41,808 nt of DNA from Vairimorpha necatrix (lineage: Eukaryota), in contig CP142728.1 of assembly GCA_036630325.1 (NCBI GenBank), positions 1,426,001-1,467,808 on the forward strand, read 5' to 3'. The notes beneath the pieces were generated by a model. That model saw only the letters and a program-made list of their open reading frames with translations. It did not search any database and was not told where the DNA came from. A program made the translations under genes and the position numbers. Positions 1,889-34,218 of the stretch are shown piece after piece. Every line of letters begins with the position of its first letter. Position 1 is the first letter of the stretch.

Positions 1889-1974
1889 ATTATTTCTAAA
1901 CTATATTATTATTGTGTACATATATATTTATATTTTAAAATCTTATTTGATTCTGCAGGAATCTTTTCATTTCT

Positions 1975-2275: not shown

Positions 2276-3031
2276 TTTTATATGTTGTCAACACATGATA
2301 CAAACATTGAGGTACTTACGAATGTAGTAACGACCATGCAACTTTCGTTTGATTGTGTGACCCAACTTGACATGCCTTTCAAAACGGTTGACATATTTTT
2401 GACATCTGTCCATGTGTTATAGTAATGTACATCACAGTATCTAAGAAAAACAAAATCTCAATAAAGAATATTAGTTAAATCATATAAACATGTTTTTATT
2501 ATTTTTTAGTTGAAATTCTTAAAAGAATGTAGTTCATATATAGTTGTAGCAGATCAAATACATATTAAACATATTCTTACAAATGACAGTTTTAACTTGT
2601 TGAAAAAATTATTTAAAAAAATCTACTTTAGAGGGTATGGAAAATAAGAATAACAAAATTACCAGATATAATAGAGAGATTGAAATACGATGCCACTAAA
2701 TCTTAAAATGTGCGGTCACATATGAAAGTATTTTGTATATAATTAGGACATATACTTGTTTTTGCCGTGTAAAATGTTTATTATTTTTTAGTATAACAAG
2801 TATATATATATTAGAAAGGTATATTTGGATCAAGATAATCTTATATAATTTAATTTCCCAAAAGAAAGCATAGAACTAATATTGTAAATTGTTTATTATT
2901 TGGTTAAATCGTTTAATGATCTTTCAATCTGACTAATTTGAAATTTTTCTTTATGTATAGAAAGAAAACAAAAAATTAAAGGAAGTTGAAAATATAATTG
3001 GTTTTCTTAAAGGATAACAAAATTAAAATAC

Positions 3032-3170
3032 GTGTGCTTGGCAGAATGGTTGCACCTTGATTTGATATCGAAGGTCCAAGGTTCGATTCCCGGTGGCAAT
3101 AAAATTAAAATTTATATTCGCTGTGTAGAAATAGATGCTGTTGGGCATACAGACGTCACTAAATATAATA
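3032..3170 (+). other. tRNA-derived sequence (SINE head or tRNA pseudogene) with Pol III A and B boxes
   Basis: A box TGGCAGAATGG at 3039-3049 and B box GGTTCGATTCC at 3080-3090, with tRNA-like spacing. Acceptor and T stems do not pair properly. A GC-richer tail ends in ...acagacgtcactaaatata. Confidence 0.65.
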
Positions 3171-3799
3171 TTTCAAATTGAATGACTAAACAAATATTAT
3201 GAAAATAATTCTTGAAATGAATTGATTAGTAATTTCTGAAATATATTCACAATTCGAATTTAAATACATATAATTTGTCATTCTGTGTTTCAAAATACCA
3301 TGACTGTGTATTTTATAAGGATCTAAAAGCCAATTATGGCACTCTTGATGTAGAAATTTATGAAGTTTGTTTTTATACAAACAAGATTAGTATAAGATGG
3401 AGATCTGTTCAATTATTTTATTAAAGACAAAGAAGTTTAATAAGTTTGCTTTTAGTGTTCTGTGTAAGAGAAAGGGCCATCTGAATTCTAGATGATTTAT
3501 TTTTATATAGACATTATATTAATCTGATAAATCTATACAGAAGTTATAAAACCTTTATTTTAATATATTTATTGATTTAATGATGCGATTAGAGGCTTGT
3601 ATATAAAAATATTCTTAATTAAAAAAAATGGTTACGTCGGAGATAGTGAAGCGCAAGTATTCGGTAATAGTTAAGTGAGTAGAAATACCCTATATCAATT
3701 GGATTGTTAACTTAATTTCTTTTGAGTTCATGTATAAGATTTCATCTTCTCTTCTACTCGCCAAGAATACGAAATTTTAAATTAAATAAAGGCTATAAG

Positions 3800-4230
3800 T
3801 CAAAATTATGTTTTTTGAACTTTTAAATTTTTAATTATTCAAAGATGACAAGTATATATATTCAAACACCAAGAATAAGAATAAAATCATAAAAAAAAAA
3901 TTATCTAAAATGACATAATTTTGATTTGTTTTTTTCATTGATGAAAAGAATTTATACACATTTATAAAAAATAAGAAGTTGATAAAAATCATAAAAAAAT
4001 TTTGTCTAAAATGCAATAATTCTAATTTTAGAGTTTTGAAATTTTCATTTTTTAAATGAGGAAAATTCTATATACATATATATATATACAATAAGACTGA
4101 AAAGAAAATCATGAAAAAATAATTAGTCTAAAATGCAATAATTTCTAATTTAAGAGATTTAAATTTTAGATTTTCCAAACTTGACAATATATATACAAAT
4201 GTAAAAAGAAAGAGAAGAAAATCATGATAA
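3800..4230. repeat. Degenerate tandem repeat, ~100-120 bp unit, about 4 units (paralog ~31750-32185)
   Basis: Anchor aaaatcat recurs at 3883, 3985, 4105 and 4218; the first three are followed by tctaaaatg. Confidence 0.6.
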
Positions 4231-7200
4231 TTAATTGATGAAAATAATCACCCCAAAATAATTCATTACAAAAGAACTCAGCTATATCATGAATGTTTAA
4301 AAGTAATTATTCTTGACATTTTAAACGATCAACTAATTATTAAGAAGAGATGCACTTGTATATGTATATATATATTTAAGAAGAGATAATAATATTGACA
4401 AGACAAAAATAATCTGATATTAAAATTTGGAATAAACAGTATTGTAAGTACCAAACTTCAAAAGTAGACTTAATATTCTTTGCGATTAAAAAATTCTAAT
4501 TCTATCTATAGCTTGCAAACAAAGTAAAGTTAGTATACATACTAGAGAAACATTAAAAATTAGTTTAATCATTTTTTCAACAAACACTGTTAAATACATT
4601 GTTTTGGAGCTATTTATCTTAACAACCGAACTAGATGATTTAAGAAATTTTTATTTCGAACAGATTCCAATTAATACTACATAATTGAATAATCTATGTG
4701 TGATAAATTATTTGCACACTGAGACGTGGCCTGCCCTGAGGATTAGCTATTATTGACTTGCACATCGATAGACTGAAGAAATGATTGACTTTATATGGCA
4801 AAATGAGCAGGTATATATATGTAATAAAGACAAATAAAGATTTAAATAACAAATGTTTTTTGTGTTTTAAATAATTCCAATTAGTCATTAGCATTTTACA
4901 TAAACAAGACACTTTTATTGAAAGACTAGGAAAGATTAAATATTAAGGATCGAAATCGCAGAAAAAATAGACAAAAAAAAAAAACATTCTTTTTTAGGGC
5001 GTAAATCAACCATGAAATCTATATATAAAATAAAATAAAAATTATATAATACTAGAAATTCAAAATGCCAACAAAATTTATAAATTTACACTAAGATATG
5101 TGTAGATATAATAAACATGGCAAGTACTTAATATAAATATACATAAATATACTAAGAAATAAAAATCGTATTAATAAGAGCATATTTATTGCAACATTCA
5201 GATGTATCTATGTATAAAAGAATGAAATACCCCAGAATCAATTACATCATATATTTTATTCGTACAGACTTGACATAATGAACAAAAACGTATTTTAATA
5301 ATATAACATAAGATAATTTTATGTTTCTGAGTTATGATAATTTCGACAAATTAATAAAAAAAAAAATATTCCGTATGTAAAAAGAATAAACAAATTATAT
5401 TAAAGAACCCAATCGATGAAAATTAAGTATTGTAAACATTCAAACTATTGTTCTTTTTGGCAAGACAGATAGCCCAAACCCCCAAAAATTAAATAAAAGA
5501 CAAATTAAAAAAAAATTTTACGTATCTTATATATTCTAAAAATATAATGTCAGTGTAAATATACTATTATTAATATTCTGTAGACTGATTATAGAGATTT
5601 TGACCTACAATAAATGATATAAGAGAAATAATATTTTTATTAAAGGGTAAAATGAACAAAAGTTGAAAAATAAAAGAAATATACATTGGGAATAACGAGA
5701 TTATTATTATTTTTGATTTTAATTACAAGAAAAAATATTTTTTTACGCCATACATACAATAAAATAAAAGAAATCTGCAAATTTATATTTGATATGTTTA
5801 GATTTCATTACGTTAACATTTTTTTTTAAATTATATAATCTTAACAATGAAAAATTTATATTTTATGATACTATATTTTTTGAATATTCCAGGGATGAAA
5901 ATATTTTTCAAATATGGGGTGAATGGTCATTTAAATATAACATTTCTAAAAAATAATTAAATTGATATATTTTTGAATTACACCCCTAATAGATATACTT
6001 TTTGTTTTCATATAATTAGACTATCTAAATCATACACAATTCAAATAGAGAAGAGAACGATATATAAATAGAAAAGAAAACAAATAAAAAGATTACATAT
6101 CTAACAATAGTTATAAAACTGTACACTAAATCAAATTTATTGTTCACATTAGAAATTATACCATGGATTAAATAATTGCAGACATAAATTTTGACTGAAC
6201 CTTCCTGGGATTGATTTGGTTGTAAATTAAATTTTTATAAAAATGCACATATTTTATTTATGTTCTATAAAAAAAGGAAAAAGACATTATATTCACATTA
6301 TAAGTTACTTTAAAAATATTTGACACAAAATAAACAATGCATAGAACAAATTAACTCGTTTCATCCTTATTTCTAAAACCAAATTCCGTACACAATTTTA
6401 ATTTGGCAGAAAAACAAATCCCTAGATGAAAGATTATCGAAATGTCATTTCTTACAATAAAAATTTTGATGTTATGTTCAAGCCATTTATAATATTAAAG
6501 GCGAAAATATATATATGCGAGAAATTAATATTTACAAAATAAAAGAAACATTTTCTTTGAAAAACAGTCCAACATTTATTTTAGATGAATCAATAGCTTT
6601 CATTCCTCGTATAAAGGACAAGGATCATATATATCATTATTAAAATAGAAATACTGTCATTATTATTTGTTTGTTCCGTAAATCCGAACCAAATCCTCTA
6701 TCGTATAACAAAACATAAGGTTACACATTTGATAATCTTTATGAATTTTTAGATTGTAATTTAGTACTGTTTCCTTAATAGAGATGTATTGTTTTTTTTT
6801 TAAAATATCAGTTGTTGATAAAATCTAGACAAGAAATTAATATGAAAATTACCTTATAAAACAAAGATGAAATACGCTTAATACGTACAATTCATGTCGA
6901 ATTAATATAATCAACTTGTTATAAATTAAGAATATTTTGTCAAGCAACATGATTCAATGTATCTGTGTAAAATCAAAAAATAAATTCTTACTCAAAAAAT
7001 AAATTATATAAAATATAATAATTTGAAATATTTATATTTTTCAATTATTATTTTTAAATGACAAGAAACGTACCTATATTAAAAAGATAATACAAGCGTT
7101 AAAATGATGTGAATCTAATACACTCTTTAAAAATCAAGACAACTTGCATTTTAGACATAAAACTATGTATGTAGAAATTTTTAAGTTAAAAAATTTGTAT

Positions 7201-7499
7201 TAAAACTTGCATCAGCAATATATATAGAATGGATCAAAAATATTATGTTCAAAACATAAAACTTTTCGTTTTTTTTTTACAATTTATAATCAATAGTGTA
7301 ATATAAGGAAAATTTACATATAGAGTATTAATAAACTGAAAACGAATGTTCCTTATATAAATTAGAGATGATTATTGTATAAAAAATAATAAGTAATATT
7401 GTATAAAGTAGCTTTTAAAAACTATTTTTAAATTTTTAATTTTTGTAGTAGACACTGAATATGTAGAACATTTTGAAAATACTTATGATATATAAAATG

Positions 7500-8700
7500 A
7501 ATATCCAGTCCTTTTTGTTTAAGATTAACGTCGCTAGAAAAAATTATTGTAACTAAGCCCTTTCCATAATGACTATTAAGATTTACTTTTTTTGAAAAAA
7601 CTTTTTTGTTCTCCGCACGACGAAGTTTTTTTTGGAAATCATTAATAAATTTTATATAACAATGAGCTTAAAAAAATACAAAAATAGAACTTTACTATTA
7701 ATGAACAACTTCACTTACAACTAGAAATAAAATTGATGTTTACATCGACCGTGTATTCAAAGAGAGGCCAGTTTTTTAAAAAAACATTATTGATGCAGTG
7801 TTTAATGAAATTTGTTAATGGTGAATTTACGATTAGAAGAATTTATCTAGGAGCATCATCTTTTCTTTTATACGATTCTATATCCCCATTTTTAAAATTC
7901 AAATAACTGGTGGTCAAAGAAGTCCGTAGAAAGCAGGATCGAATATTAGAAATGTTAGAAGTCGCGTAAAAGATTCATGTAATGATAAGTGACATTCTTG
8001 TAAGTTAATATTGTACATTGTTTAGCAATTTAGAAATTATTTAAATCTTAGTTTCTTATCAGCAGTGAATCTTGACGATGTAACATAAAGATAGATAAAA
8101 ACATATGTTCTGAAACGAAAAATTATACAATATGCCCTTTCTGTAAAGGATATGAGAATTCAAATTGGTATTTATCAATAAACTACTTCACTAAACGTAT
8201 GAGGTTAAATTTATTGTTAACAAAATTCTATGTAATGGTTCTCTCTTATTTTACATTGAAAAAAAATAAAAATTAGGAAGAGAGTAATATAATGAGCAAA
8301 ATAGAGAATGTCTAGAAATAATATCTAATGAAGGATCATTAACATTTTGAAAAATTTATTTCAATCGAAAAGCGAAATTATTAGATAAGAAATTTAGCAT
8401 ATAATAAAATTTGAAAGTTTGTGCATACACTAAATGATTGCAATTACATATCTGTCATATAAAGTATATATTGACACTGATTCAGACAAAGTTTAATATC
8501 AGCTTTAAAAGTCTTTATTAGTAAACATTCAACTTTAGATAATATAATAGTAATAAATAGATAGTGTATTATCATATAAACTGTTTACAGTTATAATTAA
8601 GATGAATCAGTAGAACAAAATATTTTAAATGTAAAGTCATAAATAATTAGAACATTATATTAACCATATTAAAGACTTATATTCTATTATAATGAATAAT
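7500..8700 (+). pseudogene. Possible heavily decayed leucine-rich-repeat-like gene remnant (paralog ~36310-37530)
   Basis: Scattered short + strand peptides (RLEEFI, LEMLEV, FSNLEI, LNLSFL, NLKV) resemble LxxLxL repeats. There is no continuous frame and these could arise by chance in AT-rich DNA. Confidence 0.25.
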
Positions 8701-8779
8701 TAAATGAGTTTAATAAAATAATATATTATAAAAACGTATATATGATATAAATTTCTATAAAGTATGAGAATGATTATTT

Positions 8780-8802
8780 TATATATATATATATATATAT
8801 AT
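8780..8802. repeat. (TA)n microsatellite (paralog 37597-37621)
   Basis: Perfect TA run. Confidence 0.9.
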
Positions 8803-9214
8803 CAGTAAAAATCTAGAGTTTAGTATAAAAAAAAATATATTTAGAAAAAACATGTTGGCCATGTAAAAGAAGGTGTGTAGTAATTTGGTTGTCGGTAATG
8901 AAGTTTGTTTTTTTTAATAATAAAGATAATTAAAACAACGGATTATATTACAATAAATACTAAATGAAGGATAAATCATCAGATCAAGCCTTGTAGAACC
9001 TAATATTTTTTATCGATGTAAGGTTCATATTAATCTTGTCTATTATATTTAATAAAACTAATCTTTTTGTAATATTTAATTTATATATTTAGGGATCTGA
9101 AATTATCTTCATTTAAGGAAAATATTTAAAAAAAATATTTTAAATATATTATGATTAAACAAAAATGATATATTAAAAATTTAAATAAGATAACTTATAG
9201 AGTATAATAAAAAG

Positions 9215-9240
9215 ATATATATATATATATATATATATAT
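9215..9240. repeat. (AT)13 microsatellite, much shorter in the paralog at ~38034
   Basis: Perfect AT run. Confidence 0.9.
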
Positions 9241-9299
9241 TTGAATAAAAAAATAATCTAATAATAATATTGTTGTGTTATATAATATAAAAAATAGGT

Positions 9300-9525
9300 T
9301 AAACTATCAAATACTCTAAGAATTTAATAGCGTACATCAAGATGATTAACAGAAGACAAACTAAAGCATTCCAATAGACTACAAAAGAGGTGTGAAGGTT
9401 CTGATTTAAAAAGGACTAAGAGCCGAGAAGCTGCCCACAAACAGGAGACGCTAATGCGGAAACTATTCAGAATATACTAGAATATAAAACACCATTAGCA
9501 TATCCTGTATTAATTCATTTTTATT
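9300..9525 (+). mobile_element. Degenerate 3' fragment of RLE non-LTR retrotransposon (ACAAACAGGAGACGCTAA subfamily)
   Basis: Aligns to 21090-21290 through gcgtacatc.agatgat, acaaacaggagacgctaa.gcgga and attcattt. Confidence 0.8.
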
Positions 9526-9646
9526 AGAATAATAATAATAATTATGTTTTATATATTTATAAAGATTGTTAATATATATTATAACAATGGTATTTATTAT
9601 GTTATTTTCTGGAATAAACTATATTTTTCCATATTAAATATGAATT

Positions 9647-9932
9647 TGTGGTATTATTTACCACATTATTATATTTTCCCTCCAAATGAATTTTCTAGAA
9701 TTTATTTTTCTATAAATATTTTCTTTTTATTTTTACCCCCACCAAAATATGTCAAGAAGAACAGAGGAGTCTAGAAATCAGCAGTATCAATCACTGCATC
9801 CCCAGAAGAGGAAGATAAAGCCCAGAGAGGCAGATTTAATAATACAACTTTAATTATAATAAAACTTCAATACTTGGCAGAAGCATTATAGAATGGTATC
9901 TGAGGAGCGGCCAACTCCTGGGTAATACCTAA
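9647..9932 (+). mobile_element. Solo LTR (286 bp)
   Basis: Starts TGTGGTATTA and ends TAATACCTAA (CA in the paralogs). 5-bp TSD GAATT at 9642-9646 and 9933-9937. Homologous to both LTRs of 38452-40429. Confidence 0.93.
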
Positions 9933-12900
9933 GAATTAAACATAAAAACAAGAAATAAATATATGACAAATTAATAATTTTTTTTTCTTTAGGGAGTATC
10001 TACACATCTTATATCCGGCATGAAGCCTGATCCGAAGTTGAAGTGATGAGTCTAAATTTACATATTGATTTATATTATTTGTTTGTTTTGCTGCTCATCG
10101 GAATTGTAGGTCAGGGGTAAATTCCGTTTAAATAGTCAATCAGATTAACTGTCAAACTCTTTGAGATGTAATCAAACAAACATGAAACCGAAGTTCTACT
10201 GAATTAGTAGTACTTCATGTGACATGCACTTGTCTTACTTTTAGTTTGTGAATGTCAAACATGTCTAATGTTTATTTACAATACTCTTAGACGTTTGACA
10301 GTACCAACAAAAATTGTTTAATTATAAGCAAGATTCGCCAGTGCAGGTCTGCAGCCTCACACATCTGAATAAATATTAATATTGTTATTTCGAAAATTAT
10401 TTCTTGCACAATTAAGTACATTTTTTTTAGAGGTTTCCAACGTATGTATCTGTATAATTAATATTTTAAGAAATTTTGATTTATTTGTCTTTTCGTATGA
10501 GTACGTAAGTAGATAATTTGCTGTTCAAAAAATAATTATGGAACGCATCATGTGCAGAATCGACATAAAAATAAAAAATTGAAGTAAAGTTAAACATATT
10601 AATTCGGCTTTGGACAAATACGTTAATTAAACGATATATTTATTTCTTTTTGCAAGATAAAAACATATTTTTCAAAACAAGTAAATTAGATTCTTTCAAA
10701 AAGAAATGAAAACACAATCATTGAGTGATTTAATTACAAGAAATGTCTGACACTATATATTAATCATTTAAGACATATAATTTAGTATAAAAATATATTT
10801 GTTGAATAAATTAGGATATATTATATACAAGAAATAAGATTCTAAATTTATCTAAAATAATTTAGGTATATGCATTAAAGTATTTTAATAAATGTTAAAA
10901 CCAAAACTTGATAAACTAAATAAAAAATTTCATGGAAGTGTGTATTAACGATTACATCATAAGAACAGTTGTCAAAGTTTACTCTGTTAAATATTCACCA
11001 ATAATACAACAAAAAAAAAATTTACAATATGTTTATCCATTCAAAATAATAAACCTTTTACTTACGTGGCTAAAAAAAAATTACAATAAAAATAAAATTT
11101 AAATTGGAATTTTGTATATGAAGGGCTGAATATCTATGAAGCAAGTACACAATCATAAAGTTATTAATAGCGAAATATTTTTAGCATTCTAACTTAGAAG
11201 TACCAAAGTTTTATTCATGAAGAACAGAGAAATAAAGAAAAAATAAGAACGAGCATATTGGTAGAAAAAAAAAATCTTTTAAAATTTAAAACGAATTCTA
11301 CACTCTATCTAAATTTACATCATAGGTAATAACAAGATAATTGAAATTTGATCTTTCCCTTTTTCTTTTGGTATAAGTACGAAAGCAAACAAATAAAATT
11401 ATTTTACGATCATTATAGCACTGTTTTAGAAGTGATACAAATAATATTCAATTATTACAACTAGAAAATAAAGAGATTATAAAGAAAAGATATTCATATG
11501 ATTTATACATATTGCTCAGCAACATAAATACATAAGAATTTAAAATAAAGATATACGATCAAGATATTAGATGAAATACAATTTTCTTTTATATTAAAGT
11601 TACGCTAAGATGAACAAAAATTAATCCCAATGTTGCATATAGTATATATAGATAAAATTAAAACAAGCAATAAAGTTTTTTAATTATCTAGAACATATCA
11701 GACGATTTTATAAATGAAAATTATACTAAAAATCAACTATATAATATTTATATATGACCAATATGTGCACGTTATTAAGTATAATAATTACTAATGGTAA
11801 AAAAACGAAAACAAATATTATATAAAAGTTTTAAACAAATTTCGATTAACCTCGTATATTACATTTTTTTGGTTTATAGAATTCTAAAGAAGTTTCAGTT
11901 ATAAAACATTGTAGACTTTTGAAATAGAAGTTGGTAAAAAACTAATGTCACAAATATTAATTTGTTGTTTACAATCATATTGACCACACAAAATTAGAAA
12001 TTATGACCAAAAAATTCTAAAAAGTAAAATCATCAATACTTTTTATATTTATAAAAATATATTATTTTATTATTAATTTCAAATAAATAAGAACAAATCA
12101 ATTCAAAAATCTATCGGTTAAATATTTGATAATCGCTCTTTTGTTATATATAATACTTTCTAAGTCCGTTAAGTATAATATTTTTATATAATAATTAGAT
12201 CAAAATTTAAGTATGAAGATCAAAATATTATAAAAAAAGTTTATATACGAAAGAAAAATTTAAAATATAATTAACAATTATCGTAAAATTATATATTCAT
12301 TGGAAAATCATTTATTTAATGTATAATTAGACGCCTTGAAGAAATTTATTTCAAATTAACAATATAAAAACAGACCTATTCATAGTAAAATCGTTTAGTA
12401 AAGGTAAAAGGAATTTTACTCAGAAACAAAATTTATGTTATTGATTTTAAGAAATCTTAGGGAAAACCCCTACTTGAATACATTTTCCATATTATAATAT
12501 AATAAGAAATAATAAGTAAATTTTTAATTATGAATAATTAAATAAAAACAATAGCACGTACAATTTAATACAAGGTTGTTGTAAATAAAACGTTTTCGAG
12601 ATTTTCAAAAAGGCATCGCATATTCAAAAAAATAAAACCAAAAATACGGGGGGAATAGAAATGCATATAAATCAAATACAGTTAATAACAATAATAGAAT
12701 TAATTATGAAATGCTATATTTATTGAAAAATCTTATATAGCATAGTTACACGCAAAAGGAATATATACTTCTAAATTTATATATTTAAGCAGAAAATAAT
12801 TTCAATTAATATAAAGAGTAATAACTTAAAATAAACATGATTAACACTAGCTTAATTTAAATTTAAAAACTTACAAAAAACATCATCATATATATAAAAG

Positions 12901-12945
12901 AATTTTATTTAATTTTTTACCCCTCTTTTTTGTGATTTTGTAAAA

Positions 12946-13404
12946 TCTAAACTTCTTATTATAGCTTTTTGTGTCATTGTAATATCAAATGTAAACTCAT
13001 TGAAGGATTTTGACTATCATATGTGTGTGTACTGTATGTTAATACGTTTCCATTTTAATTCTTTGTTTTGTAAAACTCAGTTCCAAAATATCGTCAGAAT
13101 CGTTTTTTAGAATTTATTTAACCCTTCCAGGAAAAATTGCAAAAATAATTAACAATAAAGATTTTAAATATAAGCGTCAAAATTTGAGCTTAGAAGTTCC
13201 CAAAACTATCTCATTATAATTATTAAATGTTTTAAACTCAACTTTATTCCTTATATGTTACTAAAAAGTATTTTTAAATATTATGCATTTTCCTTTTCAA
13301 ATTCATTCATCGCAAAATGGAAACTTAAAAAATTTACCGATCAGGGACATATTATAAAACTAAACATTCAAATCCCGTTTTCAAAACGGGAAAGCATACG
13401 CTAG
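12946..13404 (+). mobile_element. Putative non-autonomous Helitron
   Basis: 3' signature: palindrome TCCCGTTTTCAAAACGGGA (13373-13391), then 9 nt, then CTAG (13401-13404) followed by T. Candidate A|TC 5' end at 12945/12946 (TCTAAACTTCTTATTATAGC); the 5' end is less certain. Confidence 0.55.
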
Positions 13405-16400
13405 TGTTAATATAAGATAAATATTTTTCAATAATAATACTATATAATATTTCACCTGGACGTTTTCAAGATTATTTACAAAAAAATAAAAGAAAGTCTA
13501 AAAGTTAGAATTGGATATATTAAATATTAACAATATGGTAATACTTCGAAACAAATAAGAATTTTAGAAAAAACACCTAAATAATATTTATATATCGTTA
13601 GTCTCGAAAATTTAAAAGTATTCTTAAGAAATTAAATTTTTTGAATATATAAGAATTTATTTACACATATTTAGATAAAAAATAAAAATTTTATTTATTT
13701 AGCAAAAAAATGAAATATTATTAGTTAAAAGACTTAACTTAAAAATTTTTCGTATAAAGTAAAAAATTTCGTTCTTTGTCTTATAATTATCAGATATTTA
13801 AATTTTTTGAATCAAAAATTTTAATATAACCGTTATAGTCAATATTTTTATGAAGAAATTAAAATTTAATTTTGATATTATATATTGTCTATAGTTCAAT
13901 AAAATGCGTTAGATTAAATCTAAGTATGAAAAGGTAAAGAAAATTTTATACTTTAATATAAATTTTTAATACACAAAGATTTATCAACAAGTAAAATAAA
14001 CATAATGCCAATAAAAATCTTTAAAAAAAATTATATTTCAAAATGAAATTGTAATAAAGATAATTGAGGTTAATATTACAAAAATAATTTTTTAAAGAAA
14101 ATATATTTAAAGTAGTAGGATAACTTTTTTAAAAAAACATATTGGACTAAAACTCGTTTTGAAAATAAATATTTTCATCTAGAATAGTTAATAAAAACAT
14201 TCAAACTTAACGTTCAAATAATTTTAGATTAGTAAAAAGAAGGAAATTTTGATACAATTAAATTTTCACGACTAATTAAGCTAAAAGTTTCAAAACTAAA
14301 ACGAAAAAAATAAATTTTCTCCACATTAAATATAATTTTTTATTTTCAAATTTCGCTCTTAATAATGTACATACGACTGATTAAAATAAGTAATAGTTTT
14401 AGAACATACAACGACTTTTTTTTATAAAAAATAATATATCAATCGAAAATTTAAAATGCAATATATTACACCTACATATTAAACATGATTATATATACAA
14501 CCTACATGAGAAACATATGATTCAATAACGAAAAATTTATAAAAATAAAAAATAATCTATTGTAATTTTTCTATATTTGTATTTCAAAAGAAATAATATC
14601 ACGGGGGGTTTTAAAATTGTAAATTAAAGTTATTAAATTACAATCAATATTTCATAAAGTATATAAATAATTTAAATCATTCTAAAAGTAAAACATTCGA
14701 TACTATTTATCGCAAGGAATCATTAGAAAGTTCTTCATCTCTAAAAACTCATTTTTTTATGCTTAACTTAAGTTTTTAAAATTATTATAAAAATGCAGCA
14801 TATATAAACCAAATAATATCAAGAAAATTCATAAATAAAAATTTAAGTCTCAAAGAAACAAAAAGACATACAACGAGAATAAAATATAAACATATATAGA
14901 GGAATACAACGAACGGCATTTTATTCTGTTAGTATTTATTACAACAGTATTTTGAAATTTTTGGGTTATAATCTGTAAAAATATTATAAAATACAAAAAA
15001 TTATTTCAATGGAAATATTGATGAATATCTAAGAAATAAAACTAATAATGGTCAGAAAACATGTTAAAAAAAAATAAAAAGATAAGATATATAATATTCA
15101 TACAAATTGTAAATTTATACACAGAACTGAACTGACATGAATTTCGTATTTCTTCATGTGGATTTTTATAGTAAATATCATATATTCCACGTATTTTACA
15201 TAAATACTGTAATTATAGTTAAAAAAAAATTAAAATAAATACAGAAGTAGTTAATTTATATAAAAATATCTTGCACTAACCGAAGAATTAAAACATATAA
15301 ATCAATAAGAGCTAAGAAGAGTTAATAAAAAGTATATACAAACCCCAATGCAACTAATTAATAGATATTTATATAAATTTAAGAAAAATTTAATGTAAGA
15401 ACATATAAATTAAAAAACAAATCTTATCTTTAATAATGACAGAAAATATTTTAATGCATTACCCCGATTACATTATAAATATAGATGCAGTAGACGATTT
15501 CTAATAATTATAAAATTTAATTTAATTTAAATATTAATTGATTAAAAAAATATAATAATATATTGATAAATTAAATTCTAAATATGAAAACAAAAAAATC
15601 TTTATGAATTTTTTTGAATAAACATTTTGATTTTTAAAGAATGAAATCAATCTAATGATTTAATAAAAAAATTAAAATTTTTTAATAATACATGAATACT
15701 TTTATTCATAAAAAATAACATTTTAACATAACACATTATGTAAAACATTTTTATAGATAATGATAGGTTACTTTTAAACTATTCGCAATTTTTTACGCAA
15801 AAATTTAACAATTTTAACTGGTTATAAAATATATCAAACTAGTTCTCTTCATAATTGAAATTATATGAAGATCAAGCATGAAGTAAATCTTACGGTTATA
15901 AAAGAAAATTTATAAGTACAAACAAAACATATCTAGGGAATATGATAACATATCAAATATAATTTTTATAGGATTTATTTTTCAATTATCCAATATTTTC
16001 ACTCCCCCTTACTTTTAAAATATAATATTTTCTACCATAGAAAATTTGAATCCCAAAGAGAACATAAAAAATAGACACAATAACATTTGTAATTATAAAA
16101 GACTTCCTGGACAGTTAGGCAAATACATAGATAAATAGAATTGTACATTAGAAGAAGCCTCATCCCTATGCAGCAGCCAAGTAGATATAAATATTCATAA
16201 AAAATTCAAAAAAACAAATTTTTGCGAAAATATTTTATTTTATAAAAATTAATTAAATCATATTAATCTGATAAATCTTAAGTACTTTCATTGATCTATT
16301 TTAATATCACATAATTTTATACTGAAATATTCAAATGTAATTAGTTATTTCTATTGAATTTTCAAACAAACACTGGAATCAAGTCCTTAATGTTTCCAAG

Positions 16401-16733
16401 TTATAAAGTCCTTTTACTTTCTTGGAATAATGATCCAATTTTTTTTCAAAGTCATTATCATAAGTTTTCCTAAAGAGTATAAGTTTCTGTTTCTGTATAT
16501 ATGCGTTAGTACAGCTTTCGAGATTTAAGTTATTTGTAAAATATCCCCAAAATATTATTTTTTAGAGTATAATACGATTTTTTTAAGTAAAAAATATGTT
16601 AAAACACAAAAATGACCTTTTTTACAATAATATATATTACAAATTAAAGAAGTAATTTCATTTTTTTACAATATATTATTACATAAATTTATTCGCAGAA
16701 AAACATTAAAAATACTTTAAGTATTAATTATAA

Positions 16734-16771
16734 TATTAAAGTCGAACCTATTATTAAATAAATGTATAACA
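16734..16771 (+). repeat. 5' LTR (38 bp)
   Basis: tattaaagtcgaacctattattaaataaatgtataaca. The last 20 nt are identical to the 3' LTR, and it is directly followed by TGGCG. Confidence 0.85.
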
Positions 16772-16899
16772 TGGCGAACACAAAATACGAAAGTTTAACA
16801 CAAGTGTGACCTGTATTTAAGAGAAGAAAAAAATACTAAAAGAAGCTCGGAGAGTGAGACAATCATCATAATGCAGAAAGATGTACAAGATGTGACAAC

Positions 16900-17485
16900 A
16901 TAAAAAGGAAACAAGTAAGTACTGAACTTCAAAATTTTAATATTGATAAAAAACTACTTAGTATGATAAATTGGAATGATATTATTGATGAAATTGATAA
17001 ATTAGTTGTGAAGAGAAAGAGAATAAGAACAAGAAAAAAATAAGGTGTAGAGAACTTGAAGATATGGTAGAGGGTATGAAAGAAAAATTAAAAAGAGAGA
17101 AAAAAAAGATCTCACTAGAACTGTAGCAGTGCCAGGAAGTTACTTATAATATCAAAGACGAAAAAAAAAAAATTGTTTTATATGTGTAAGAATTATACAT
17201 ATAGCTGTAGGTTGTATGGAACGTAAAGGAAGACATGAAGAGAATAATGAAAATAAAAGTGTTAAATATTTATGCATTCGTGGTAATAGTAAAATGAAAA
17301 TATTAAAAGGAATTGATTTCAAATTGAGACTACCAGTGGAGGTAGAAAGAGAGAACTCAAGAAACAGTTTTTATGTAAAAAATTCAAACCAAGATAAAAG
17401 AAGAAAAAATATTAATAAATATGAAGAATTAGAAGGAAAATTTTCGAAGTATTGTGAAAAGACGAAGGGAAAAGAAAATACTTAA
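16900..17485 (+). pseudogene. gag: gag remnant with CCHC zinc knuckle; protease active site apparently missing
   Basis: 17174-17215 encodes CFICVRIIHIAVGC (CX2CX4HX4C), in frame with ORF 17216..17485. No D(S/T)G motif is seen before RT. The start is approximate. Confidence 0.7.
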
Positions 17486-17589
17486 CAGGGGGAAAATGTT
17501 CTATCAAAACAAAACAAGGAGTGAAAGTAGTTATAAAAAGACAAAATATTTCTTTTAATTCGAGAAAATTTTGAAAAGAATATTAATTT

Positions 17590-19800
17590 AGGAGAAAGTA
17601 GAGGTATTATCAGAAGGACAAAGAGCAAATGGAAAAGCCTAATAAAGCCCATAGAAAAACCAAATGGTAAAGTACAATTGAGAAGCAATTTGATGGCTTA
17701 TAATGAACTGGAATAAAAAGATCCGTATGAATTGCCATTGATTAGAGACATATTAAAGCAACGCAAGGTTCTAAAGTATTTATGGTTATAGACCTAAAGG
17801 AAAGATTCTATCATATAGAAATTGAGAGAGCTTACAAACATAAGACAGCTTTTAAGATAAATGGTAGAGTTTACGAATGGAATGGCATGGTAAAGGGATT
17901 AAAAAATGCTCCCCATATTATGCAAAGAGTGATGAACGGAGTTTTAGATAAGTTTAGAGGCAAGAGTGTTGAGGTGTACATGGATGATATTATTATTTAT
18001 GCATGAGATAGTAATATACAAGAAAATTTTTTAAAACAAGTAATTCGAAAATTTAACGAATGTGGATTTAAAGAAACTTAAAAAAGATACAATATAAAGG
18101 AGAAGTAAAACTACTGGAGTAACAATTAACTGAGAAGACATTAAACCGAAAAAATATATAGGAGTAGACATTAGAATACAGAAAGCCTAACAACATAAAA
18201 GATCTTAGAAGAGTTGAGGAGCGGGCAGGCTGGTTAAGAGATTTTATTCATCATTATGCTTATCGGTCTGCGCTTCTTACAGAACCACTAAAAAAAGATG
18301 TTAAATGGGAATGGTCCGAAGATATAGAAAGAGCTTTTATGGATATCAAAGAGGGTTTAAAGAAGTGAAAAAGTTAAAAATAGTTAGTAGTGAAAAAATC
18401 TATAGAGTAAGAACGGATGCATGCGATACGACAATTGGAGCCATACTTCTGCAAGAAGACAAGGAAGATAGGTGGATTTGAAACAATGGGCATCAAAAAT
18501 GATAACATTAACAGATAAAAAGTATAAGATTAGTGAAAAAGAGATGTTGGCAGTGTTATTCGGAATAAAGAAATTTGAGTCAGATTTGTGAGGAAGAAAA
18601 ATTCATTTAATAACAGATCATTAATCACTGGCCGAGATTAGAAACAAACCGTTTTTCAATAATTACATAATTAAGAGATGGATAGAATATATACAAGAGT
18701 TCGATTTTATTTTTGAATATGTAAAAGGAGAATTGATCACGTATTTATATGCATATAGTAGACAATTTAAAAAAACGAAGTGAAAGTAAAAAAGCGAAAG
18801 TAGAAACGGCCCCAAAACAGATGAAAGAAAAAGAAATAAAGCGCATGGTTAATAGAAAAGGTAAAAAATATTGGAAGTTTTCAACAGGAGAAATTAATAA
18901 ATACAACACAAAGAAATAAGTGAGAACAGAAATTCGTAGAGTTCATGAGGAATTAAATCATCGAAAAGTTAAGGGAACACATTATAAGATTATACAAAGA
19001 TGGTACTGGCCAGGTATGAAGGACCAGATAACCACATCGCTAAAAAATTGTTAAGTATGTAGCATTAATAACAGAAAAACGATCGGAGGTGGCAATTTTT
19101 TTTGGCATTTAAGAAATTAGAAAAGTAGCTTATGACGTAATGGATATTGGGGAAATAGAAAGATACGTGCTATTAGGGATGGACTACTTAGAACAAGAGT
19201 ATGTCACGCAAAGATGGAATTTAAGGGATGTGATTTTATTACTAAAATTTTAGAAAAATAGATGCCCAGATGAATATATTACGGATAACGGCAAAGAATT
19301 TTCAGTGAGAAGTTTGTAACTTGGTGTAAAGAAAACGAAATTATGCAATGGAGAGTATGTTTGGAAGCTCATAGGAGTAATGGAAGAATAGAACAATGTA
19401 TTTGAACAATAAGGGAATCGATGATCCATGAAAAAGAAGGAAACCCAGAGGAAAAACTAGAACAAGCTGTAAGAACTAATAATTCTTACACACAGCGATT
19501 AATTCAACACAATTGAAGCATGGAAAGAACAAGGAAAATAAGTCTTTATTGAAAACAATAAAAAGGGTGTGTATTAAAGTAGTTTTAAATTAAGGCATAG
19601 AGAAAAATTTGAAGTAGATCAGGCTGTGAGAATTGCATTAAGAGAAAACAAGGGTAAATAGATGAAAAGTATGAAAGGAAGATTTACAAATGTTGATAAA
19701 AGGAGGGGAAAGTCTGAGAATAATTCTTATATTGTAAGGACTGATAGCTGAAGATACATTAAGAAACAACATTATGACCTAAAAGATTATAAAAATGGAA
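17590..19800 (+). pseudogene. pol: pol remnant: reverse transcriptase, RNase H, integrase (many stops and frameshifts)
   Basis: RT: RGIIRRTKSKW..PIEKPNG, KDPYELP, IDLKERFYHI..KTAF..GLKNAP..YMDD (ORF 17782..18006). RNase H: RVRTDACD..IGAILLQ, SEKEMLAV, ITDH, RWIEYIQEFDF. Integrase: HEELNHR..WYWPGM..C*VC, ITDNGKEF, SNGRIE. Confidence 0.95.
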
Positions 19801-19843
19801 AATTAGAAGCTTGTAACGTGCGACTACCCGTTTAGAGGGATGA

Positions 19844-19882
19844 TGTTATGGTTGAACTTTCCTATTAAATAAATGTATAACA
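19844..19882 (+). repeat. 3' LTR (39 bp)
   Basis: TGTTATggttgaactttcctattaaataaatgtATAACA, with TG..CA ends, 6-bp terminal inverted repeats and an internal AATAAA. Confidence 0.85.
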
Positions 19883-20979
19883 TATAATCATGAATTTGAA
19901 AAAAAATAATTGAATTATAAAGATAGTTAGATAAATTTTATCAACAAATTTTAAATTTTTATTTATTTTAGTTACATATTGATTTAACTAATAAATTTTT
20001 TAAACAAAGGATTCAGGAAGTTTTGAGGGTTAAAAGCTTACGTGTTAGTTAGGTAGGTTAGGTAGGAGTATCTGTTATATTAAAAAATGTAAAGTTTGAA
20101 ATAGAGAAAAACTAAATTCTAATTTATTTTTGAATTCTAGCCACAAAATTAGAATATGTTGTACCGAAAGCATTATATACCTTTTCTATATTCTTTAAAT
20201 AGACTATATATCGACTCTTTAACATAAATCAAAAATTTATCTAGAGAAGCCTAATAAAGAATAGAAAGAAACAAATAGTAAGTATAATCATACAGTAAAA
20301 TATACTATGACAATTTTTCGGCAAATCAATTTTTAATTTTATAATTACGCACTTTTATTCGAACATAAAATGTTATTTGAAAACATTTAAAAAAGAAAAA
20401 TAATCTAGTAATTTTTATCCAACACATGACAAGAACAATATTTGTTTTGTTCTTCGTTCCATAGAGTCATATACCAAGATCTAAAAGATCTATCAATTTT
20501 ATGAAAAATTTGTAATATATTAAAATAAATATTAAAAAATAAACTTATCGCAAATTGTTTATAAATTTAGCATTTAGAACTTCATACTATAGGCATAATT
20601 TCTCAAAGTCAAAAAATGATGTTTATACAAAAAGGTTTACAATTAATAATTATTAGAAAATTATTTAGAATTAAAAGCAATTTTTTTAGATTAAAGTTTT
20701 CTTCTTAGAAAATGAGTTTAGTTTTTTATGTAAAAGCTATTTAAATATAAAAATTAATATTTTTTTATTAAAAAATTTCAGTCATACGAAAATATTAAAA
20801 TATACAAATTTTAATAATTTAATAATAGTTATCAATAAAACTATTAAAGAATCAAATCATTTAGAAAAAAAGAACCTTCTAATATGTTTAATTTGATATC
20901 ATTAGTCAAAATTCAATATTTTATAAATGATCAAGCTTATTATCATAAATAAACTAAAATGAAAAATATAAAATAAGAT

Positions 20980-24200: not shown

Positions 24201-24707
24201 GTTTGTTAGCCCTTTAAGTTTTTAGATGATCGATGTATGAAGAAGTTGTGCCAAAGAATTAACCATAATTTTTAATAGTGTAAATATAGAAATTCAACCT
24301 TTTAAATTGTACTTATAAAACAATAATATACTATATACACTATGAAGCCAAATTATTAAAAAAGCTTTAACATAACGTATTTTAACAACAAACAGAAACA
24401 TACTGTATCGAAATATTGGTTAATATATAAAAATCATTGGGGTACTAAGAAAAACAGAACTTATACTCTATTTAAGAAATCAATTGTAAAGATGTATATG
24501 TATATATAAGAAGGATAATGAACTTAAACGAAGAAGAAAAAACTTTACTTCTGAACAAAATATAATTATTATTTATAGTATATGTATGTCAAGTTAGAAG
24601 TATTGGTTTTCTTGATGATATTTTTAAGAGAAAAATAATTTCAAATGTTTTTTATAGATAGTTAACTATAACTTTATAAACATATAAGAAGGAAATAACA
24701 ACGTCGT

Positions 24708-26043
24708 AAAATTAAGAACATCTAAGACTACATATAAATATATATTATTGGTATATAAGTGAACGTTGTGTGTCTTTTTTTGTTTTTGAGCCATATAAAA
24801 GATTTGTTATTTTTCCATCTCTTTCTTGTATATATATATATATATATATAAGAAGACAAATCTTGCAAAATATGAAAAAATTAAGAACAGCTGAAAATGC
24901 ATATAAATTTATATATTTGTTATATAAGTACTTTTTTGTATCTTTTTTTGTTTTAAAGCATTTATGAAATTTGCCATTTTCCATCTCCTTCTTGTATATA
25001 TATATAAGAAGACAAATCTTGCAAAATATGAAAAAATTAAGAACATCTAAGACTACATATAAATATATATTATTGGTATATAAGTGAACTTTGTGTGTCT
25101 TTTTTTGTTTTTGAGCCATTTAAAAGATTTGTTATTTTTCCATCTCTTTCTTGTATATATATATATATATATAAGAAGACAAATCTTGAAAAATATGAAA
25201 AAATTAAGAACTTCTGAAAATGCTTATAAATTCATATTATTGTTATATAAGTGACACCTGGGTACTTTAAATGTTTTTAAAGCATTTATGAAATTTGCCA
25301 TTTTTCATCTCCTTCTTGTATATATGTATATAAGAAGACAAATCTTGAAAAATATGAAAAAATTAAGAACATCTGGACTACATATAGATTCATATTATTG
25401 TTTTACAAGTACTTTTTGTATATCTTTTTTTTGTTTTTAAAGCATTTATGAAATTTGCCATTTTCCCATCTCCTTCTTGTATATATATATAAGAAGACAA
25501 ATCTAGAAAAATATTAAAAATATGAAAAAATTAAGAACATCTAAGACTACATATAAATTCATATTATTGTTTTACAAGTACTTTTTGTATATCTTTTTTT
25601 TGTTTTTAAAGCATTTATGAAATTTGCCATTTTTCCATCTCCTTCTTGTATATATATATAAGAAGACAAATCTAGAAAAATATTAAAAATATGAAAAAAT
25701 TAAGAACATCTAAGACTACATATAAATTCAAATTATTGTTTTACAAGTACTTTTTAACATTCTTTATTTGTTTTTTTAGCATTTATGAAATTTGCCATTT
25801 TTCATCTCCTTCTTGTATATATGTATATAAGAAGACAAATCTTGAAAAATATGAAAAAATTAAGAACTTCTGAAAATGCTTATAAATTCATATTATTGTT
25901 ATATAAGTGACACCTGGGTACTTTAATTGTTTTTAAAGCATTTATGAAATTTGCCATTTTCCATCTCCTTCTAGTTTACATATATATGAAGACAAATCTT
26001 GAAAAATATGAAAAAATTAAGAACAGCTGAAAATGCATATAAT
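24708..26043. repeat. Minisatellite, 156-169 bp unit, 8 units plus a partial one
   Basis: Anchor aattaagaac at 24710, 24879, 25035, 25202, 25361, 25529, 25698, 25858 and 26015. Each unit contains a variable TA tract. Confidence 0.95.
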
Positions 26044-27599: not shown

Positions 27600-28919
27600 T
27601 TATGTCGAAATATAACTATATTCCAACGATATCTTATGGTAGTATAACATAGAATTTTGCGACCCAATATAGGATATTATAAAATTAGTTACAACATCTT
27701 GATCTTAAGATATCTCATGATTTTACGAGATCAAAATTACTTTTAATAAAGGATAGTTTTTAAAAAACTTACTTTCAATATATGAATATATTGGCAAACC
27801 TGTTCGGAAATGATTAGACCACCTAGAATTAAAACGAAATATATATGTTGGAAATAGCAGACGAGTCTGAATGAAATTGCATGTTTATTAAGAAACTTTC
27901 TCTTTTATATTTAATTCTGAAACACTGATTAGTGATAACCATATTCAATTGGACCAGCTTGTGATGAAACAGTTTGATGATTGATAAAGAGCAATGATTT
28001 GTATTTAGAGTTACAACAATATATATATATATATATCTGATTGTTATGTTAGTATCTTTCTATTAAAGAAAATATTTTATATCTGATCGTATAATATATA
28101 CTCGTAAAATCAGTAGTAGATCAAAAAAAAGTAAAAAGGATTCATTTTAAACTAATATTTTTTGTATATCTTTTATATAGAAACCTTATTAATAACAATT
28201 TCATATATATATATATAAAATACTTTTTTGTTTAATATTTTGTTTTCGATATTTCTAAAATTTTATCCTTATACATCTATTTTAAATTAAAAGTCAATAG
28301 ATAATTAGGGATATTTATGCATACTTCTTAATTAAAAATATGAATTGTTAATCGTATAGTGTTATAACACTAAATATGATAACGTTTTGAATTTTATCAT
28401 TTATATCATTATATGTAAGGGACACATAAAATATTAAGCATTCTAAAGTTTTCATAAATTATCTTTTAAATTCTTATAATCATTAATTAAATACTAGAAT
28501 AATCATCAAAATATTCTTGTTTTTACATATCACACAATTCAATGTTATGTATCAAATTCATCAGACTGATGTTCTATGAATAATATTAGTAAGTAGGATT
28601 ATTTAAATAGTCGAAATGTCTAAAATTGCCCTTTATTCTACGTAAAACTGTTTCTAAATAGTCTATATTTATAATTTGATCTTAATTCTAATATCCCTTT
28701 TAATAATTGAATTATTTATTCAGATAATGCTAAACTTATATCTATAGAAGTTTTCGCATACATTCATCACAATGATTATGTAATAATCATACTTATGTTT
28801 GATTGGCAATAATTAGGTATAAATGCGATTATTAAAATCATTATTTTCTACGGACTAAAAATATATGATCGGAGAAACCTTATGTTTATCAATAGATTAT
28901 ATGACTAAATTTAAGTAAA

Positions 28920-29410
28920 GCACATGTAGCGGAAGTGCTTTTAAAAATTATAGTAAAAAGCTGCAATTACAATTCTTGTGACAGCACGTGTTTTTTCACT
29001 GTTAATGTAATTTTTTTTTACTTTATGCTCATGATCTTTTTTATCAGCTAATGATTATTATAAAATTTAATACTTCGGAAATTTGAGTATACATCTGTAT
29101 TCCAACTTTTCAACTTCTCGCGACACGTGGGATGCGCAAGCGCTATAAGGTCTTGTCCATTGAAGTTGGTATAACTAACGATACTCAAACTTCAGAAGTA
29201 TATAATTCGTATAATAATCATTTGCTGATAAAAAAGATCATGAGCATAAAATATAATGATTATTACACTAGCATAAAAAAAATTGACTGTCTTGGATTAT
29301 AAATTATGTAATACTTATTTTTATAATACTATATTCCACAAATCTTTTGTCATTCCAACTTAACTTATCTCTTTATTGCACCAATCCAATCTTTGATTTA
29401 TCATTGCCCA
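28920..29410 (+). pseudogene. Paralogous copy of the degenerate RLE retroelement remnant
   Basis: Duplicate of 121-620; IEVGITN begins at 29159. Confidence 0.62.
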
Positions 29411-29914
29411 TAAACAAAATTTTTTTTTTAATATTTTAGGAGGGAAATTTAAAATAAACAAAATATAGAAAAGAGCGTAGATTTTGAATTAAAAGGATTT
29501 AATAGCAACAATAAAACAAATTTTTGTTATAAATTAATTAAAAATATACAATCAAAAACTAAACAAATATGTTAATTACTCTTTATTCAATGATCTTTAT
29601 TTGAAATTTATTATTAATTTTTCTTTGTCTATAGAGTAACAACTCAATTAAAAAGATGATCAGATGGTATTTTTTGAAATACAATACGGCCTTAAAATTT
29701 TTTAAATTCTCTTGACATTTTTGAAGAAATTCAAAATTTAATTAAATTTTTGCTAAAAATCAATCGTAATGTCAAAATAAAATATTTTTTTTAAAATAAT
29801 AGTTACAGTTGTAAAATTTAAAAAGATTAGGAATTCATTATTTCTAAATTATATTATTATTGAACAAATATATTAATATTTTAAATTTTATTTGCATTCT
29901 TCAGAAATCTAAAC

Positions 29915-30222
29915 ATTTCTGGAAGCATACATTCAGTCTAATGTGATAAAGAAAACTCCAGAGTCCATCTCTTTGGAACGACGAATAAGATATGATAAAG
30001 ATTATGCAGGAGAAGAAGAAGTGGTTAGAGCTTTTAACTTCTAGCGAATATGGCGACTGTTGAACAAGCGATGTCGGTATAGGAGAATGAAGCTAAAAAT
30101 TTGGAGTTGAAAAACATAAATAATTCCACATAAACCAAAGTCTATGAAGAGCCGAATCTAGTGAGCGATACCGAGGGAAACTGAACAATCTAACTTTAAT
30201 GATAAATTTACTCAATAAATCT
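29915..30222 (+). mobile_element. Paralogous RLE non-LTR 3' fragment
   Basis: Reads FLEAYIQSNVIKKTPESISLERR; duplicate of 1975-2275. Confidence 0.75.
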
Positions 30223-30980
30223 TTTATATGTTGTCAACACTAAACACAAACATTGGCGTACTTACGAATGTAGTAACGACCATGCAACTTTCGTTTGATT
30301 AAGTGACCCAACTTGACATGCCTTTCAAAACGGTTGACATATTTTTGACATCTGTCCATGTGTTGTAGTAATGTACATCACAGTATCTAAGAAAAACAAA
30401 ATCTCAATAAAGAATATTAGTTAAATCACATAAATATGTTTTTATAATTTTGTATTCGAAATTATTAAAAGAATGTAGTTCATATATAGTTGTAGCAGAT
30501 CAAATATATATTAATCATATTCTTACAAATGACAGTTTTAACTTGTTGAAAAAATTATTTAAAAAAATTTACTTTAGAGGGTATGGAAAATAAGAATAAC
30601 AAATTTGCCAGATATAATGGAGAAATTGAAATACGATGCCAGTAAATCTTAAATTGTGCGGTCACATATGAAAGTATTTTGTATATAATATAGGACATAT
30701 ACTTGTTTTTGCAGTGTAAAATGTTTACTATTTTTTAGTATAACATGTATATATATATAGAAATGTATATTTGGATCAAAGAAAATCTTATATAATTTAT
30801 TTTCCAAAAGAAAGCATAAAACTAACATTGTAAATTGTTCTATTATTTGATTCATTCAGATTAATGATCTTTTAATCTGACTAATTTGAAATTTTTCTTT
30901 ATGCATAGAAAGAAAAACAAAAATAAATAAAGTTGAACTATAATTGGTTTTCTTAAAGGATAACAAAAAATTAAAATAAT

Positions 30981-31115
30981 CGTGCTTGGCAGAATGGTTG
31001 CACCTTGATTTAGGATTTCGAAGGTCCAAGGTGAGATTCCCGGTAAGAGAAAATTTAAATTTATTTTAAGTATAAAGATATCTACTGGCGGACATATAGA
31101 CGTCACTAAATATAA
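30981..31115 (+). other. Paralogous tRNA-derived element with degenerate B box
   Basis: A box intact (TGGCAGAATGG); B box mutated to GGTGAGATTCC. Confidence 0.55.
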
Positions 31116-34100: not shown

Positions 34101-34218
34101 TTCACATTAGATATTATACCATGGATTTAATAATTGCAGACATAAATTTTGACTGAATTTTTCTGGGATTGATTTGGTTGCAAATTAAATTTTTATAAAA
34201 AATGCACATATTTTATTT

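Follow-up and report, generated by a model that had tools for sequence, protein, structure and literature searches.

A dead Ty3/gypsy element in Vairimorpha necatrix that very probably belongs to a lineage with 38–49-bp long terminal repeats and no protease

In a 41,808-nt stretch of the Vairimorpha necatrix genome (assembly GCA_036630325.1, contig CP142728.1, positions 1,426,001 to 1,467,808; hereafter, the window), we analyzed a Ty3/gypsy element bounded by long terminal repeats (LTRs) of 38 and 39 bp. The element is 3149 bp long and very probably represents a dead full-length copy from an inherently minimal Ty3/gypsy lineage of microsporidian type, with LTRs of 38–49 bp and one open reading frame (ORF) without a protease. 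The ORF of this lineage (~1000–1050 aa) comprises a mini-Gag, a zinc knuckle, reverse transcriptase (RT), RNase H, and integrase; it starts at or inside the 5′ LTR and ends near or inside the 3′ LTR. The initial annotation, which was made from the sequence alone, had recognized the Ty3/gypsy element and its short repeats; the loss of the protease, the small size of Gag (~130 residues), and the dead state of the copy were not part of it.

The two LTRs occupy 16734..16771 (5′, 38 bp) and 19844..19882 (3′, 39 bp) on the forward strand, on which all features of the element lie, and they are enclosed by the 5-bp target-site duplication TATAA (16729..16733 on the left and 19883..19887 on the right); these ends were read directly from the sequence. 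The core of the primer-binding site (PBS), TGGCG (5 nt, 16772..16776), directly follows the 5′ LTR, and the polypurine tract AGAGGGATGA (19834..19843, 9/10 purines) directly precedes the 3′ LTR, with the same placement of both in relatives. The duplication, the PBS, and the purine tract stand as initially annotated, and our recount of the repeats agreed with the earlier one: 31/39 columns were identical, including all of columns 20–39, the last 20 nt. The annotated TGTTAT...ATAACA ends were found in the 3′ repeat only; the 5′ repeat begins with TATTAA, so that the outer left end has no TG. With regard to the features of the class, the element has direct terminal repeats with TG...CA ends (TG...CA in the 3′ copy and TA...CA in the 5′ copy), a target-site duplication within the range of 4–6 bp, a PBS after the 5′ LTR, and a polypurine tract before the 3′ LTR. 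The 20-mer common to both repeats has a chance expectation of 2.7e-5 occurrences in the window, and the P value for a chance match of the right-flank 5-mer, given TATAA, is about 0.01 (0.008–0.010). CATGGCG and GACTA.CCG occur once each in the window, at the ends of the element. AATAAA is present in each of the two repeats (at LTR position 24 in the 5′ copy and position 25 in the 3′ copy). The last base of the 5′ LTR and TGGCG together read ATG-GCG (16771..16776), a likely first or second start codon; another ATG, at position 29 of the 5′ LTR, is in frame with this junction ATG. The element has 30% GC and 65% purine, compared with 20–22% GC in the 2-kb flanks.

All eight differences between the LTRs are confined to the first 19 columns (16734–16752 versus 19844–19862). 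This clustering has a P value of 0.001 if differences are uniformly distributed and of 0.026 when the seven substitutions, six of which fall at G/C sites, are weighted by the G/C mutability of the window's own duplication. The clustering was noted post hoc and is only partly explained by G/C mutability.

Between the LTRs, the coding region is collinear with the ORF of the relatives but broken, and the window copy is dead. A decayed mini-Gag (16762..17215; ~134 codons between the junction ATG and the zinc knuckle) was delimited by a profile of the relatives' Gag, which matches the window from 16765 on (E values of 3.5e-4 and 1.6e-4), and it includes a degenerate CCHC knuckle (17174–17215). A short linker (17216..17442) with no protease signal occupies the usual place of the protease. 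It is followed by decayed RT (17443..18362, with YMDD at 17977–17988; Pfam RVT_1, E 2.6e-21), RNase H (18332..18768; Pfam RT_RNaseH, E 2.2e-12), and integrase (18845..19784, with HHCC at 18911–19075, a core, and a C-terminal part; Pfam Integrase_H2C2, E 3.7e-9), all of which were also detected by tblastn. The Pfam matches to RT, RNase H, and the integrase zinc domain fall in shifting frames and in Ty3/gypsy order. Many stops and frameshifts interrupt the region, the longest stop-free stretch being 111 codons, and the protein of L004, an intact relative described below, aligned with the window by tblastn in seven frame-shifted pieces. Over 105 RT codons, the window and L004 differ at 57 third positions and 15 second positions. 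The spacing from the knuckle to YMDD is 254 codons in the window, compared with 218–297 in relatives. An internal deletion in the window copy was rejected because this spacing matches that of the relatives. A Ginger element or other DNA transposon was also rejected because RT, RNase H, and direct repeats are present.

A custom protease profile was built from 16 protease regions. The profile found no protease in the N-terminal parts of 30 relatives (maximum 0.6 bit, or 1.0 in leave-out runs) or in 33 whole relative proteins (maximum −1.4); P0047, P0061, and P0065 fell outside the N-terminal scan and inside the whole-protein scan. As a control, three sister proteins left out of training scored 29–44 bits. 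The best score in the six frames of the window was −0.3 bits. No aspartic protease family was present among the 25 of 61 Pfam families listed for the 33 proteins, Pfam being a weak test here that detected a protease in 2/4 sister controls. Peptidase_A17 was matched in 3/33 relatives (best E 0.047, position in the protein unchecked). The distance from the knuckle to the start of RT was 31–110 aa, with a median of 50, in the 33 close relatives. The AlphaFold model of P0019 (mean predicted local distance difference test (pLDDT) score of 79) contains helices, the knuckle, a low-confidence linker (pLDDT <50), and RT, and no beta-rich domain is found between the knuckle and RT. These results indicate that the lineage carries no aspartic protease of its own. 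Because this standard Ty3/gypsy feature is absent, the element is a variant rather than a standard member of the group.

The initial assignment to Ty3/gypsy was confirmed by the order RT–RNase H–integrase in the Pfam matches and by the affinity of the RT in a phylogenetic tree. The closest named RTs to that of the window were from Nosema granulosis (59–68% identity). A profile search returned 151 proteins, and among the 120 matches listed, the named close ones came from Nosema, Vairimorpha, Enteropsectra, Nematocida, and Pseudoloma, together with proteins from some bacterial bins that are presumably contaminated. In an RT tree built by a quick method (79 rows, 106 columns), the window grouped with four N. 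granulosis proteins, P0001, P0006, and P0037 (97% support in the Shimodaira–Hasegawa-like approximate likelihood-ratio test), and was thus nested among N. granulosis RTs; protease-bearing sisters fall into the wider 99% clade around this group. The relatives are single ORFs of about 1000–1050 aa, in agreement with the one-ORF gag-pol of microsporidian groups. None of the catalytic residues of RT, RNase H, or integrase varies among the 33 proteins, whose mean identity is 45%, indicating that selection has maintained a functional lineage in the absence of a protease. Scans of viral contigs gave no match. The bins G001 (Clostridium-labelled) and G002 (Turicibacter-labelled), with loci L004–L036, contained 49 and 16 eukaryotic gypsy polyprotein matches, respectively. 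All of this lies on short contigs, as expected if a microsporidian-like eukaryote had contaminated the bins; contigs of short-LTR elements contaminate bacterial bins.

LTRs of similar size were found in the close relatives. L004 has an intact 911-aa ORF, with the 5′ part of the locus missing, and shares 66% nucleotide identity with the window over 1.9 kb; its ORF crosses the purine tract and stops within a 38-bp 3′ LTR, which has TATTAAATAAATG and the AACA end in common with the window. The 3′ LTR of L003 and the 5′ LTR of L002 are near-identical 49-mers bounded by a purine tract and a PBS, respectively, and the 5′ LTR of L006 is 47 bp. Sequencing evidence was drawn from contigs of 4 of the 7 listed runs; the small-share runs X3 and X5 are uninformative on habitat. 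In 3/4 of these runs, contigs match the window from 16751 onward. The 17 loose letters before 16751 begin with TGT in X1 and X5, and only the last 8 are covered in X2, so the X1 and X5 contigs appear to carry a 38-bp LTR in a sister family. In the short-LTR group (the window, L002, L003, L004, L006, and the sister contig), the 5′ flanks end in A in 4/4 cases, and the 3′ flanks begin with T in 3/3 cases, a pattern that could possibly reflect a target preference, with small numbers and AT-rich DNA. At 1055–1103 (minus strand) of L002, and likewise in L001, a 49-bp 5′ LTR with its PBS lies inverted beside RNase H-like coding sequence continuous with a long ORF, representing either a nested insertion or a chimeric assembly. 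L009 (229–3592) and L019 (262–3851) are intact and protease-bearing, and short LTRs exist outside the protease-less group too.

A similar element was already listed in 2014. Table S1 of Parisot 2014 (PMC4202319) gives 'Aalg retro L' of Anncaliia algerae a 50-bp LTR, an ORF at 32–3049, and a total length of 3127 bp, and Fig. S1 lists it beside the label 'Microsporidia Group 1'. In the sequence supplied, both LTRs are present, 49 bp by our reading versus 50 in the table; the sequences from this source were compared by eye, outside the RT tree. Like the element in the window, the supplementary retro L sequence is about 3.1 kb and has an LTR of the form TGTTAT...AACA with TATTAAATAAAT, a TGGCG PBS, and a GACTA.CCGT motif before the purine tract; by eye, its knuckle is directly followed by RT, and its single ORF starts inside the 5′ LTR, as in the relatives. 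The differences are the LTR length (38–39 bp here versus 49–50 bp) and, in retro L, a CCC directly before the ATG. The short-LTR architecture thus appears in the 2014 supplement without comment, and word searches of the main text of that article found neither 'protease' nor 'retro L', nor any comment on LTRs being short. Among the complete A. algerae families tabulated, 4/50 have LTRs below 100 bp, and the range is 45–272 bp (PMC4202319). The statement in the initial annotation that the shortest known LTRs are about twice the present size is not supported, as that table contains a 50-bp LTR of this lineage and a 45-bp entry. In the literature on microsporidia, Repbase and subscription papers aside, no description of a 38–50-bp LTR or of a protease-less gypsy lineage was found.

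These comparisons make it very improbable that the repeats were left behind by the erosion of long LTRs or that they match by chance at the ends of a truncated element. The window copy is indeed old and broken, the differences between its repeats cluster in their 5′ halves, LTRs of other microsporidian families reach 272 bp (PMC4202319), and the window itself holds a 286-bp LTR, all of which would fit erosion. However, erosion would require an identical internal deletion in both LTRs, the total of 3149 bp matches the 3127 bp of retro L in the supplement, the intact L004 has a 38-bp 3′ LTR, and the shared 20-mer has the very low chance expectation given above. With 38–49 bp in the close relatives, the short LTR is a lineage trait, not the deletion remnant that the initial annotation had named as a possible refutation. 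It had also named similarity extending beyond the target-site duplications. On the left this was not observed, as run X2 has a depth of 0 on the flank (16308–16615) and of 142–1662 on the element; on the right, such similarity is formally present.

Several observations weigh against a lineage that is minimal by design. A low-depth X1 contig, about 89% identical, continues across the 3′ junction into flanking sequence, and X2 covers ~270 bp to the right of the element (depths of 155 and 83 in two bins). The X1 contig is likely a duplicate of the window locus, because the window is rich in 87–93% duplications, and the X2 cover likely stems from a neighboring repeat. The protease-less side of the quick 106-column tree has a support of only 81%. 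Among the fetched protease-less loci, none has both LTRs, and in no fetched close relative is an LTR pair combined with a target duplication; the two fetched elements with identical LTR pairs (L009, 58 bp; L019, 75 bp) are protease-bearing and have no matching target duplication; their unmatched flanks are probably due to copies merged in short-read bins. No empty site for the element was present among the 15 contig joints listed. Solo LTRs of its family were not found in the window either.

The initial annotation had seen hardly anything in the LTRs besides integrase attachment ends and AATAAA, and had proposed an internal or read-through promoter. The LTRs of less decayed relatives hold more than this: CCC, an AT-rich tract, and an ATG lie inside the LTRs of L003, L004, and L019, and CCC lies inside that of L009. 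The supplementary LTR sequences of the A. algerae elements retro L, S, and CK contain CCC as well, and in these LTRs and those of the relatives, an ATG usually follows it at a short distance. In Encephalitozoon cuniculi, 5′ untranslated regions are described as shorter than 7 nt, with CCC and AAATTT-like signals immediately preceding the ATG, and the same compact signals are described for A. algerae and N. ceranae (PMC2803860). The LTR signals of the relatives resemble this compact microsporidian promoter. Among the full-length relatives, 16/25 start with M-x(1-6)-[HNYD]-M-[AGV] and 8/25 with M[AGV] (together 24/25); these N-termini correspond to the translated LTR end and PBS. In L002 and the P0011-type families, the sole in-frame start lies inside the LTR, and in the protease-less group, AATAAA either precedes the in-LTR ATG or shares bases with it. 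An LTR-borne promoter is therefore the simpler reading, and an internal or read-through promoter is probably unnecessary.

We consider it unlikely that the LTR supplies only attachment ends and a poly(A) signal, with transcription from a promoter inside gag or by read-through from the flank, even though read-through transcription is described as common in E. cuniculi (PMC2803860) and CCC is missing in four of the eight distinct LTR sequences inspected, namely, those of L002 and L006 and both window copies. In the 38-bp LTR type, moreover, CCC precedes the AT-rich tract, whereas host promoters have them the other way round, which like the missing CCC counts against an LTR-borne promoter. The loss of CCC from the window LTRs may be explained by decay, because the two copies differ mostly at G/C sites (6/7 substitutions). 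The combination of CCC, an AT-rich tract, and an ATG in the less decayed LTRs of three separate lineages, the A. algerae supplement included, argues for promoters within the LTR, as does the position of the only in-frame start of L002 and the P0011-type families; a start upstream of the LTR would also place flank sequence on the strong-stop DNA, which would hinder strand transfer.

With an LTR-borne promoter, the short LTR could be accommodated because host promoters are short, an AT-rich tract and CCC lying no more than about 25 bp from the ATG. The transcript would then begin in the second half of the 5′ LTR, either at AATAAA or beyond it, and terminate close to the right edge of the 3′ LTR, so that the repeated region (R) plus the unique 5′ region (U5) would amount to roughly 10–25 nt. 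A start near the in-LTR ATG would leave AATAAA out of the 5′ end and allow its use at the 3′ end. The minimal R suggested in the initial annotation would follow from the LTR length. Because of its ends and enzymes, the element is expected to be copied by ordinary LTR reverse transcription, with tRNA priming at TGG, priming at the purine tract, and two strand transfers, and to be inserted by integrase with a 5-bp duplication. Searches of the window with ARAGORN and Rfam gave no hits, and no tRNA was found in the window.

Just upstream of the purine tract lies a 10-nt motif, GACTACCCGT (19822..19831), which is invariant in the window, L003, and L004 and has one mismatch in the supplementary retro L sequence. 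The motif follows the stop codon in L003 and in that retro L sequence and lies inside the ORF in L004, and the C-terminus reads through it in 12/33 relatives. Because it is kept whether coding or not, a role as a cis element is probable. One candidate is that it forms the second half of a split PBS, as in Ty3, whose PBS is bipartite and includes a 3′ part; among the relatives, the PBS itself has only a 3–5-nt core in common. Hairpins over the motif (−4 to −12 kcal/mol, without a shuffle control) and its weak pairing with the 5′ end are reported here without a structural claim.

Upstream of the knuckle, the Gag of most full-length members measures 121–167 aa, and in the P0019 model, it consists of three short helices plus one long helix. 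The mini-Gag, at about 125–150 aa, is about half of a typical two-domain capsid. No capsid family was present among the Pfam families listed for the proteins of the 33 relatives. ESM Atlas neighbors of the Gag part belong to Gag/coat clusters (scores ≤0.85), hhalign of the Gag profile against sister Gags gave a probability of 1–2% and was significant for the knuckle only, and the matches listed by Foldseek for the full P0019 model are all RTs, including the Ty3 RT structure 4ol8, and are thus uninformative on Gag. Without a protease, the polyprotein may act as an uncut fusion; it might, more tentatively, be processed by a protease borrowed from co-resident sister elements, and processing by a host protease seems unlikely.

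It is conceivable, if doubtful, that the lineage is semi-autonomous, supplying its own RT, RNase H, and integrase and relying on the capsid and protease of protease-bearing sisters for packaging and processing. Bin G001 holds the protease-less L004 together with the protease-bearing L009, L013, L015, L017, and L019, although a contaminated bin need not be a single host. The short Gag, which matches no capsid family, and the linker before RT with a pLDDT under 50 would also fit such dependence, whereas proteins from Nosema, Vairimorpha, and Enteropsectra have all retained the mini-Gag and the knuckle, and the linker shows no conserved cleavage motif. Self-sufficiency is likewise put forward tentatively. 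The lineage might be old and widespread, near the lower size limit of its class, and might have lost the protease and part of the capsid; it would use one uncut Gag–RT–RNase H–integrase protein and carry out both strand transfers with a 38-bp LTR (R of about 10–20 nt, with hardly any U5) and a 5-nt PBS that the conserved 3′ motif beside the purine tract would assist.

A single polyprotein, the RT–RNase H–integrase order, and short LTRs are shared with other microsporidian Ty3/gypsy groups as described in the literature (PMC4202319; Nosema bombycis Nbr, as summarized in PMC2474625). Unlike the present lineage, 'nearly all' of those groups are described there as Gag–protease–RT–RNase H–integrase, and most are 3.6–4.3 kb. 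The fetched L009, L015, and L019 also differ: each has a DTG protease, and their LTRs measure 58, about 176, and 75 bp, respectively. The RT fold and the short PBS core are shared with Saccharomyces Ty3/Ty1, which have LTRs of about 330–340 bp, their own protease, a two-domain capsid, and frameshifted gag/pol; the gag start of Ty1 lies inside the LTR. Mag of Bombyx has an LTR of about 77 bp and encodes a protease, and terminal-repeat retrotransposons in miniature (TRIM) and small LTR retrotransposons (SMART) have short terminal repeats and are noncoding. The 194-bp LTR of TARE1 has been called 'very short' (PMC3701649). Mag, TRIM/SMART, and TARE1 also combine short repeats with a PBS and a polypurine tract, but their repeats are two to five times longer.

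The lineage would lower the practical LTR minimum to 38 bp and provide an example of a long-lived coding lineage without its own protease. It offers a natural test case for the terminal redundancy needed in LTR reverse transcription and for the need for polyprotein processing and a full capsid, and it suggests that LTR size tracks host promoter size. These implications are bounded by one family member in the 2014 supplement, a dead window copy, and an inferred mechanism. LTR finders have a default floor near 100 bp, and such a floor would lead to undercounting of such elements in microsporidia.

Pfam found no families in the six frames of 1–14400, and the rest of the window was covered by the ORF list and by tblastn with retroelement proteins only; within this scope, the window yielded no gene diagnostic of its host. 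A second LTR element lies at 38452–40429, with 286-bp LTRs that are 97.9% identical and GAATT on both sides; it contains a gag-like remnant of about 1.4 kb and no pol match. Its LTR resembles microsporidian promoters in that it holds a T-rich tract, CCCCC, and an ATG, and a solo LTR of this element with the same GAATT flanks is present at 9647–9932 in a duplicated segment. This ~11-kb segmental duplication (1–11295 versus 28799–41807) has 87–93% identity, and its G/C columns differ five times more often than its A/T columns. Two related inverted-repeat inserts of ~840 bp (1049–1888 and 34219–35053), with GG...CC ends and 8-bp duplications, are each absent from the other duplication copy, so that both empty sites are visible; we take them to be Merlin-like miniature inverted-repeat transposable elements. 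These inserts and the second LTR family with its host-type CCC signal are compatible with a microsporidian host, short of proof. A repeat with a short TTAGG-like tract, whose length varies among contigs, lies to the right of the Ty3/gypsy element at about 19890–20150, and a tandem array of units of about 160–170 bp occupies 24667–26042.

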